A stretch of 64,000 bases of DNA. It comes from an uncultured Bacteroidales bacterium (GTDB taxonomy: Bacteria; Bacteroidota; Bacteroidia; Bacteroidales; JAADJA01). Positions 45,299 through 46,130 of this stretch are shown in pieces. Numbering within the stretch: the first letter of the stretch is position 1; each line of letters starts with the position of its first letter. The DNA lies in the NCBI GenBank assembly GCA_963749345.1, contig CAVVMO010000004.1, positions 3,053,358 to 3,117,357 on the forward strand, given 5' to 3'. A program made the translations under genes and the position numbers. Below the pieces are notes generated by a model, which worked only from the letters and a program-made list of their open reading frames with translations, searched no databases and was not told the DNA's origin.

Positions 45299-45386
45299 GT
45301 ATTCTACTTTGGGGTGGTGGTCGGGGACGAGGGGGCATTGAGGAGCGTTGGGGGTTTTGGCGTGATTTTTTGTTTTGCGGGTTGGG

Positions 45387-45663
45387 GGGTAACGGCAAAG
45401 GGTTGGCACAAAAATATCGGACAAATTTAGGTTGGCAGCAAAGTAACAGGCTGCAAAACCATAGTGTAAAAGCGGTAAGGGGTGAAATGAACGAAGCTGA
45501 AATGAAATGTAGCCAGGGCGTAGCGAAGCGGAGCCAGAGGCGGAATGGAATGGAAGCGAAGTGAATGAACCTCTTACATCAATAAAATCCTTGCTGCCTG
45601 GTGCTTTGCTTTCGGGGTGGCATTTGTCCTGATATTTTTGTTTCGGGGTGGCTGCCGTTACCC
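45387..45663 (+). ncRNA. Candidate structured RNA/palindromic element A: four nested helices closing an 85-nt purine-rich loop
   Basis: H1 45387-45397/45653-45663 (11 bp perfect). H2 45408-45426/45622-45641 (19 bp plus 1 bulge). H3 45434-45441/45591-45598 (8 bp). H4 45475-45483/45569-45577 (9 bp including one G-U). The loop at 45484-45568 is almost pure A/G. Strand and function are unknown. Confidence 0.4.
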
Positions 45664-46130
45664 GAAGGGCTGGACAAAAACCATGACAAAACCATTAGGA
45701 AAGGGCAGGTATGGACAATAAGCCCGGAATGGCTTGACTGGTGAAGCTGCAAGCACAGTATTGCGGAAGTTTTAGGGGCTGGTGCGGTGGCCTGTGCGTT
45801 GGGTATGGAGCGGACTGTGCTTGCAAAGCTGAAGCAGGCGGAGAAATGGAGGGCTTAAAAACTCGTTCTGCTTGTACAACTTAAATGTGGGCTGGTCAGG
45901 GATTGGTTTAGCGGTGGCATAGGGGCTATTTAACATAATAAGGTTATAGGACGCTCTGGTGCAATGGGAAGTGTGTTAGCGGGTGCTACTATAACTACAT
46001 GTTATGTTAAATCAGCTTTGGAAAGACTCGTGCTTCTTTAAAATTAGTATTGTTTAGTTTAGTTGGAAGACTGCTTCATTTAGTCGATTAATTTTTAGCC
46101 TATTTTTACATAGTAAATAAAATTAAGGCT

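Follow-up and report, generated by a model that had tools for sequence, protein, structure and literature searches.

What is the G-rich, apparently gene-free tract that follows directly on a large terminase (TerL) gene in the genome of an uncultured Bacteroidales bacterium, and as what kind of molecule does it act? The tract begins at position 45299 of the 64,000-nucleotide stretch analysed here (contig CAVVMO010000004.1, positions 3,053,358 to 3,117,357; hereafter the window), and an initial annotation had proposed that it was either a large structured non-coding RNA (ncRNA), novel or known, or a phage packaging or attachment structure. Comparison with homologous loci (designated L plus a number) revealed that the tract is a selected, structured non-coding element with covarying helices, as that annotation had supposed, and that it forms the right-hand end of a cassette of ~8-9 kb. 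We tentatively favour reading it as an end region acting in cis whose function, in mobility or replication (recombination, processing or priming), depends on one folded strand, probably of DNA. Of the two initial proposals, the packaging or attachment structure looks at least as likely as an RNA, because modules of the tract bound unrelated cassettes and adjoin tyrosine recombinases elsewhere.

Homologues were gathered through the TerL protein, a 20-nt invariant word, DNA searches in related genomes, nhmmer profiles and a covariance model. Covariation, which the initial annotation had named as the check on its helices, is evident in the 340-nt rod-like hairpin called module A, for which an alignment of nine homologues from four Bacteroidales families (A1) has 83 pairs with 89.2% of cells paired; 44 of the 83 pairs have changed on both sides, against 26.1±3.0 after shuffling (0 of 500 shuffles as high) and 9-18 with the partner slid. 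The terminal hairpin, module G, is 98.8% paired over 73 distinct homologues and has invariant cores (ACATAAT/ATTATGT and TTATA/TATAA) flanked by pairs that covary (e.g. AU:32 CG:22 GC:18). In module F (alignment A3; 11 sequences, 22 pairs) the 12-bp inner stem covaries (GC:4 AU:3 UA:3; GU:4 GC:3 UG:2 CG:1), with other pairings in relatives, and the outer helix displays one compensatory change, ATGCCC/GGGCAT in L007. Covariation in module B, which is found in relatives (10 sequences), is smaller but real. The hairpins thus exist, are conserved and covary. Folding energy adds little about the strand: the minimum free energy z-score of the tract is -3.4 on the plus strand and -3.2 on the minus strand, and since the two are alike, thermodynamics alone picks neither.

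These data leave a decayed protein gene or a chance G-rich stretch hardly credible as an explanation. The surrounding cassette is full of frameshifts and the minus strand of the tract holds a 132-codon stop-free stretch, both of which could suggest a former gene; however, intact relatives share the non-coding tract without a conserved open reading frame (ORF), indels among homologues are divisible by three in only 3 of 30 cases, and conservation tracks base pairing and not codons. The earlier statement that the tract has no credible ORF holds for 45299-46040, where the only plus-strand ORF encodes 89 aa and has no Pfam match.

The tract is modular, consisting of a G-run leader, the rod A, module F and the terminal hairpin G (Table 1). 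The nested helices first described are in place (45387-45397/45653-45663, 11 bp and perfect; 45408-45418/45631-45641, 11 bp and extending further; 45437-45456/45591-45610, 20 nt at 85%), as are the 12-bp perfect stem now assigned to module F and the G-runs of the leader, and we add an outer helix that had been missed (45353-45370/45676-45693). Four G-rich octamers in the internal loops of the rod run in one orientation on both arms, which bears out the earlier argument that same-sense internal-loop strands speak for function as one folded strand; module B of relatives holds equivalent loops (GGGATGGC/AGGGTTGGC). At the rod tip, the 85-nt A/G loop of the initial annotation is indeed a purine-rich segment but need not be simply open, since GUGAAAUGAAC and GUGAAUGAAC at its base can be modelled to pair via two UGAA/UGAA tandem G·A motifs, and the rod probably continues into the segment. 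Across the family, the bases of the hairpins are conserved and their apical parts variable. Judged from sequence, these features mean that one particular strand folds, a description that folded single-stranded DNA (ssDNA) and a structured RNA would fit equally. Helix P3 also carries the Bacteroidetes -7 motif TAnnTTTG on both arms, facing outward (45409-45416 and 45422-45429 on the minus strand, 45633-45640 on the plus strand).

Table 1. Features of the terminal hairpin region and its cassette, in window coordinates.
Feature	Position	Strand	Basis or remark
Rest of type I cassette	37085-43941	both	tblastn of intact L011 proteins, Pfam/PHROG, blastn synteny
Large terminase gene, Terminase_3/PBSX type	43942-45298	+	Pfam Terminase_3 5e-37, Terminase_3C 4e-20
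G-run leader (GGGGTGGTGGTCGGGGACGAGGGGG...GTTGGGGG)	45299-45353	+	G-runs at 45309-45350
Module A, 340-nt rod hairpin, five helices	45354-45692	+	folding, alignment A1
Module A helix P1	45354-45375/45672-45692	+	
Module A helix P2	45388-45396/45654-45662	+	
Module A helix P3	45410-45425/45623-45639	+	
Module A helix P4	45437-45458/45589-45610	+	
Module A helix P5	45475-45483/45569-45577	+	
Module A apical purine-rich segment	45484-45568	+	
Four same-sense G-rich octamers, GGKTGGC core, in internal loops (in order GGGTTGGC, AGGTTGGC, GGGGTGGC, GGGGTGGC)	45400-45407, 45429-45436, 45614-45621, 45645-45652	+	spacing 29-31 nt within each arm
Module F, with 12-bp stem 45748-45759/45814-45825 and invariant CAGGCGGAGAAATGGAGGGC	45700-45868	+	alignment A3
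Module G, terminal hairpin	45904-46035	+	covariance model R1, 103.5 bits, E 2e-20
Last conserved element bases (AAAGACTCGTGCTTCTTT)	46022-46045	+	similar to the 5' arm of another rod (ACTGGCGTATCTTTTTG at other loci)
Module H, separate fragment of same hairpin family	47100-47400	+	GC/skew profile; homologue at L012 11970-12090

Module F is spanned by a long-range helix between AAGCCC (45720-45725) and GGGCTT (45851-45856). In module G the arms GGCTATTTAACATAAT (45924-45939) and TTATGTTAAATCAGC (46002-46016) enclose an inner stem (GTTATAG 45943-45949/CTATAAC 45989-45995) with a variable apex, and AGCTTTGG follows at 46014-46021. The tract has a G+C content of 48-52% and a G-over-C skew of 0.3-0.5; unrelated AT-rich DNA follows after 46045, and past ~46050 the G+C content is 27%. 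Its end had been placed at 46000, and while the tract is real, the conserved element continues to ~46040. In relatives the same order of leader, rods, F and G is kept across sequences of ~70% identity, and the leader motif GGGGTGGTGGTCGGGG recurs after the TerL stop or ahead of rods (L009, L011, L113, L114, L117, L119). The window lacks ~680 nt of hairpins (modules B-E) that sit between TerL or module A and module F in L009, L010, L011, L113, L114, L117 and L119. Beyond module G, after 1.06 kb of AT-rich sequence with two small genes, lies a separate fragment of the family, module H; it consists of a stem (47157-47170/47261-47274) round a purine-rich GAATG-type segment, then AAGGGTTGGC and a second small hairpin, and stops abruptly at ~47400 in a truncated, rod-arm-like CTGGCTGGCGACCTTTTTG. 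Its homologue in L012 likewise lies 1.7 kb past the module G of that locus.

The genes upstream show what the tract terminates. Comparison with intact relatives, whose TerL proteins have 420 aa and end in ...HGLDAVRYVV..., placed the true TerL stop at 45296-45298 and revealed a +1 frameshift near 45221 that cuts the ORF to 43942-45228; the non-coding tract begins one base after the stop, at 45299. The whole type I head cassette (~37085-46040) carries a LamG-like p209 remnant, p84, p155, the portal, a 450-aa putative capsid protein and p348 on the minus strand, and p148, the DUF5681-like p115 and TerL on the plus strand, and Pfam and PHROG scans of type I cassette proteins found no integrase, tail, lysis or replication gene. 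All genes of the window cassette are frameshifted, and tblastn with the L011 proteins found only this copy in the genome. With frameshifts in all its genes and modules B-E (~680 nt) gone, the window cassette is dead; its tract is a shortened relic and probably not functional, so that its value lies in the family and not in the locus. Relatives carry intact type I cassettes, sometimes two per genome (loci of this type are the window, L011, L114, L119 and L166). The closest TerL from an isolated phage is <40% identical, and blastn of the tract against a collection of 50,697 phage records found no similar DNA.

Two further kinds of cassette end in the same modules. A non-homologous, tail-less type II head cassette (L160/L165) encodes a Mu-type portal, a ClpP-type protease, a Phage_capsid_2 protein and a different TerL, and behind the stop of this TerL lie a comparable G-rich leader, at least one rod and module G. 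The third, of 4.4 kb, encodes DnaJ-like, DUF6266 and 479-aa proteins, has rods and G at its end in divergent orientation from its genes, and occurs in genomes without a homologue of the window TerL; the left end of one such cassette (L130 3440-3590) lies ~60 nt downstream of a tRNA 3' end (GGTTTGAATCCTGTCGGGGTCACA). Homology between loci ends ~35 nt past G, and the downstream flanks are unrelated. Opposite-strand cargo genes can stand between TerL and the hairpin modules, encoding a 543-aa surface-type protein in L012 (7565-9196) and a 93-aa zinc-ribbon-like protein in L011 (7356-7637), which indicates that the end region tolerates insertions between modules. The idea that integration splits a rod and leaves its 3' arm at the left end was considered and is unsupported for type I cassettes.

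In gene content, the window-type element of 8-10 kb resembles phage-inducible chromosomal islands of the capsid-forming kind (cf-PICIs): it has a portal, a capsid protein, a protease/scaffold-like protein and small and large terminases, and no tail or lysis genes. It differs from them in that the type I unit, from p209 to module G, contains no integrase, regulator or primase/replication module, in that some metagenome-assembled genomes hold several diverged copies, in ending in a hairpin region, and in having no known helper phage. The unit thus offers a head and packaging gene set that lacks a tail, but the integrase or replication gene that would mark a cf-PICI is absent from the unit.

That the tract adjoins terminase genes in two unrelated head cassettes would also suit a double-stranded recognition region, in which the octamers are phased sites bound by a small terminase (pac/cos) or by a replication initiator (iterons) and the inverted repeats are incidental. 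Satellites commonly carry the packaging or replication sites of their helper, and the octamers are direct repeats ~30 bp apart, i.e. at about three helical turns. Nevertheless, we regard such a region as quite unlikely: it leaves unexplained why 44 pairs along an inverted repeat of 340 nt have changed in a compensatory way, the octamers vary more among homologues than the helices do, and the modules are also found in the DUF6266 cassette and in five genomes without a homologue of the window TerL, which a pac or cos site of that terminase would not lead one to expect.

The cassettes share a second property with the tract, a strand asymmetry in base composition. On the strand that bears the tract, third codon positions are G at 0.23-0.24 and C at 0.12-0.13 in genes of both orientations, throughout type I, type II and DUF6266 cassettes (L011, L114, L166, L160, L129 and L131; window 38000-46000); the asymmetry reverses in L131, where the rods lie on the other strand, and flanking host genes have a third-position skew of about zero. 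Because the bias does not depend on gene orientation, it is a DNA-level property of the cassettes, and as such it can explain, with no need for an RNA, why the tract is depleted in C and has more G·T than A·C. It could stem from passage through a single-stranded stage, from unidirectional replication or from selection. The premise of the initial annotation that a GC-rich island in an AT-rich genome marks an ncRNA was therefore the wrong frame, as the tract is terminal in a mobile cassette and shares its strand bias. "AT-rich" was also too strong for a window of ~36% GC in which the whole cassette at 38-46 kb is GC-richer than its flanks.

This bears directly on the proposal that the tract encodes one or several large structured ncRNAs, transcribed in the TerL direction as a read-through 3' extension or from promoters of their own, with roles such as a packaging-motor or capsid-associated RNA, an anti-defence decoy or a regulator of the cassette. 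We consider this, the main rival to the favoured reading, possible, though on the doubtful side. The long helices covary strongly, purines prevail where bases are unpaired (A 31%, G 35%, C 10%), conserved wobble positions flip between GU and UG, a GNRA-type loop varies between GUAA, GGAA and GAAA, and the apical segment is bordered by tandem G·A motifs (UGAA/UGAA), all of which suits an RNA. So does the way in which the tract sets in directly behind the stop codons of two TerL genes that are not homologous, on the TerL strand and without an evident terminator, and so do the T-runs behind G in about half of the loci. Predicted pairs contain more G·U than A·C (47:23 in module A, ~30:2 in module F and ~33:2 in module B); as proof of RNA this excess is weakened by the presence of the same bias, and of C-depletion, at synonymous sites of all cassette genes in any orientation. 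Further points speak against RNA: orientation relative to neighbouring genes differs between element types, the upstream sequence revealed no conserved Bacteroidetes promoter, the T-run stands 9-10 nt past the stem and is not a canonical terminator, and the module always stands at an element boundary with G nearly invariant in sequence, as for a DNA site recognised by a protein. A scan for sigma-70 promoters and terminators gave results at chance level.

Known RNA families do not account for the tract either. The initial annotation had pointed to GOLLD, ROOL, HEARO, raiA and others; at the gathering score, searches with Rfam 15 returned nothing in the 64-kb window or in eight homologous loci totalling 73 kb, and a permissive scan of 44800-46400 gave two chance-level matches (E 1.6 and 7). 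A scan of the window for tRNA and tmRNA found none. Like GOLLD and ROOL, the tract is a non-coding structure of large size that is conserved, covaries and lies in DNA derived from phage. It is like the packaging RNA (pRNA) of phi29, which is functionally tied to the packaging motor, in adjoining packaging genes in capsid/terminase cassettes. Unlike these, it matches no Rfam model, is built of rod-like tandem hairpins instead of a multi-branched fold (a rod-like, unbranched shape that also sets it apart from OLE), is not near tRNAs and occurs in elements without packaging genes as well. A literature search on DUF6266, terminase-associated structured RNAs and tail-less Bacteroidales satellites found nothing matching. 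The family is real, conserved across Bacteroidia families and absent from Rfam 15 and from the literature searched.

Module G could be followed beyond these cassettes. A covariance-model search in 401 Bacteroidia genomes from 200 genera found it in 38 genomes (~10%) and 30 genera, at 1-9 copies each. Four loci were examined in detail, and in three of them (L276, L278, L279) G has a primase-helicase and a tandem pair of tyrosine recombinases (Phage_integrase proteins of ~290-340 aa) as neighbours, forming inverted pairs 460-850 nt apart in two; such tandem proteins are absent from the window, the head cassettes and L277. Locus L277 (G715:C72, 3660-5900) has six module-G-type hairpins that all point the same way, spaced at 200-850 nt with small ORFs in the gaps, together with a repeated segment of ~80 nt and no recombinase within 3.6 kb, and resembles an attC cluster without an integrase. 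Most other loci have one or two sites, and in many a T-run and then the start of another rod follow G. In L276 (G467:C35) an identical 7.3-kb unit occurs twice in tandem (2452-4531 and 9785-11864), containing three small genes and a rod arm besides module G, the primase-helicase and the recombinase pair; a mobile element that integrated in tandem would leave such a duplication. The pattern GGCTATTTWACATAAT was also looked for in viral contigs, where its matches are mostly due to chance and ~7 are true copies of module G.

Several copies per genome, local clusters and a hairpin with 15-16-bp terminal inverted repeats round a variable interior of 44-178 nt might also describe a short transposable element, and the window has a second fragment of the family 1 kb away. 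G, and perhaps the rods, would then be miniature inverted-repeat transposable elements (MITEs) that have accumulated in non-coding DNA near mobile cassettes and have no function for the cassette. We judge this very unlikely, as the copy number is low (each module once in the window's genome), G has an identical terminal position and orientation in three unrelated cassette types, its interior stem pairs covary instead of drifting, and the order of leader, rods, F and G is conserved among relatives.

For a cis-acting folded strand, the closest parallels are found among single-strand systems. Single-strand origins (sso) of rolling-circle plasmids are non-coding regions of ~150-350 nt in mobile elements that function on one strand only, through long imperfect rod hairpins, and that enzymes of the host or a helper recognise. 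Frpo of F-like plasmids is an ssDNA promoter formed by a rod-like, unbranched, imperfect hairpin (PMC11541004). The rods of the tract resemble these elements and the single-strand initiation (ssi) signals in being long imperfect hairpins in mobile elements, with unpaired or mismatched spots that are conserved. They differ in having no sequence similarity to them and no relaxase, oriT or HUH Rep nearby, and in standing in series of two to six modules, 0.7-1.2 kb in total, with capsid/terminase cassettes. Module G, for its part, resembles integron attC sites and the folded attP(+) of CTX-type phages: it forms an imperfect palindrome in which the outer boxes are conserved, an inner box follows and the terminal part varies (arm-core distance 44-178 nt). 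As with attC, it is found at cassette boundaries, in one same-orientation array (L277) and beside tyrosine recombinases in several genomes, and the cassettes it ends have no integrase of their own. It differs from attC in that the recombinases near G are tandem pairs with a primase-helicase and that the cassettes can be of 4-9 kb with many genes. The tract resembles sso/ssi/Frpo hairpins, attC-like sites and large phage RNAs, and has the testable defining features of none of them.

The favoured reading of a cis-acting folded DNA strand draws on several lines of evidence: the modules stand at the boundary, are common to unrelated cargo and include a G core that is near-invariant; G lies near tyrosine recombinases and a primase-helicase elsewhere; and the rod-like unbranched shape, as in ssDNA origins and promoters, is joined by the strand asymmetry. 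Because the orientation of rods and G to neighbouring genes varies across element types, a cis-acting DNA signal also fits better than an untranslated region. The DNA nature of the folded strand, the part of G in recombination or processing and that of the rods in priming or initiation are inferences. The end region terminates mobile gene cassettes of several integrase-less kinds in Bacteroidia, and its G-rich strand folds into rods (A here; B-E in relatives), the conserved purine-rich helix F and the terminal hairpin G at the boundary. Module G may act as a structure-specific recombination or processing site for enzymes supplied in trans, and the rods may be strand-specific structures, formed when the strand is single-stranded and comparable to single-strand origins, ssi priming signals and ssDNA promoters.

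A number of observations weigh against this reading. The position of the tract directly behind TerL, the T-runs and the purine-rich and GNRA-type loops suit an RNA, as set out above, and elements packaged by a terminase are double-stranded. No direct repeats or att core of at least 10 nt were found at the element ends beyond AT-rich chance matches, and neither a relaxase nor an HUH Rep is among the cassette proteins scanned. The TAnnTTTG boxes within P3 of the window, a possible parallel to promoter boxes inside stems, are absent from L004, L006 and L122-L124, and sso motifs such as RSB/CS-6 are not conserved either, TAGCGW-like hexamers in the apex being variable. The primase/recombinase elements with G do not display the strand asymmetry, and the asymmetry itself is an excess of G with no clear enrichment of T, so simple cytosine deamination is not established. 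Nor is module G a canonical attC, whose palindrome ends in the boxes RYYYAAC (R'') and GTTRRRY (R'): the window copy fits (ATTTAAC/GTTAAAT), but GTTRRRY is present in only 5 of 32 copies and AAC/GTT is often TAC/GTA. Crossover at G|TT of the R' box, as in attC, is likewise contradicted by homology that runs at least 35 nt past it (AGCTTTGGG..ACTYGTGCTWCTT).

A larger proposition, which we hold to be unlikely as a whole, is that Bacteroidia carry an undescribed system of recombinase-less mobile cassettes bounded by folded-strand signals, the near-invariant G and the covarying rods, with G serving tandem tyrosine recombinases in trans in the manner of attC or the CTX attP. IntegronFinder surveys have found almost no integrons in Bacteroidetes. 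Were the proposition true, a phylum nearly devoid of classical integrons would possess an integron-like system of capture and mobilisation, with cassettes ranging up to a complete tail-less capsid/terminase module, and a stage as single strand, through which the element as a whole would go, would account for the two-fold bias of G over C on one strand. Should the modules prove to be mobility signals acting in cis, they would define a new and fairly widespread class of non-autonomous mobile cassettes in Bacteroidia, of which the tail-less capsid/terminase units could be satellites or gene-transfer devices, and with the covariance model R1 they would offer a sequence handle for finding such cassettes in gut and environmental genomes; if they are RNAs, they would form a new structured RNA family, 0.3-1.2 kb in size and linked to the packaging modules of phages. 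In both cases the strand bias of the capsid and DUF6266 cassettes, independent of gene orientation, gives an unusual and testable clue to how they replicate or move.

Two features recur at the edges of the cassettes. Proteins with a Fibrobacter-type domain (Fib_succ_major) are encoded on both sides (window 46353-46986 and 33104-37048; L134 3567-9086): a frameshifted one lies just past G, and one of 1314 aa converges on the left end in the window, as does one of 1839 aa in a relative (L134). Short C6...G6 hairpins (CCCCCCTCAAGGGGGG type) are found at 37916-37951 in the window, at the left end of L119 and in L012 (9735-9770 and 9915-9950); they recur at cassette edges and within the tracts of relatives, and look like a separate family of small repeats.

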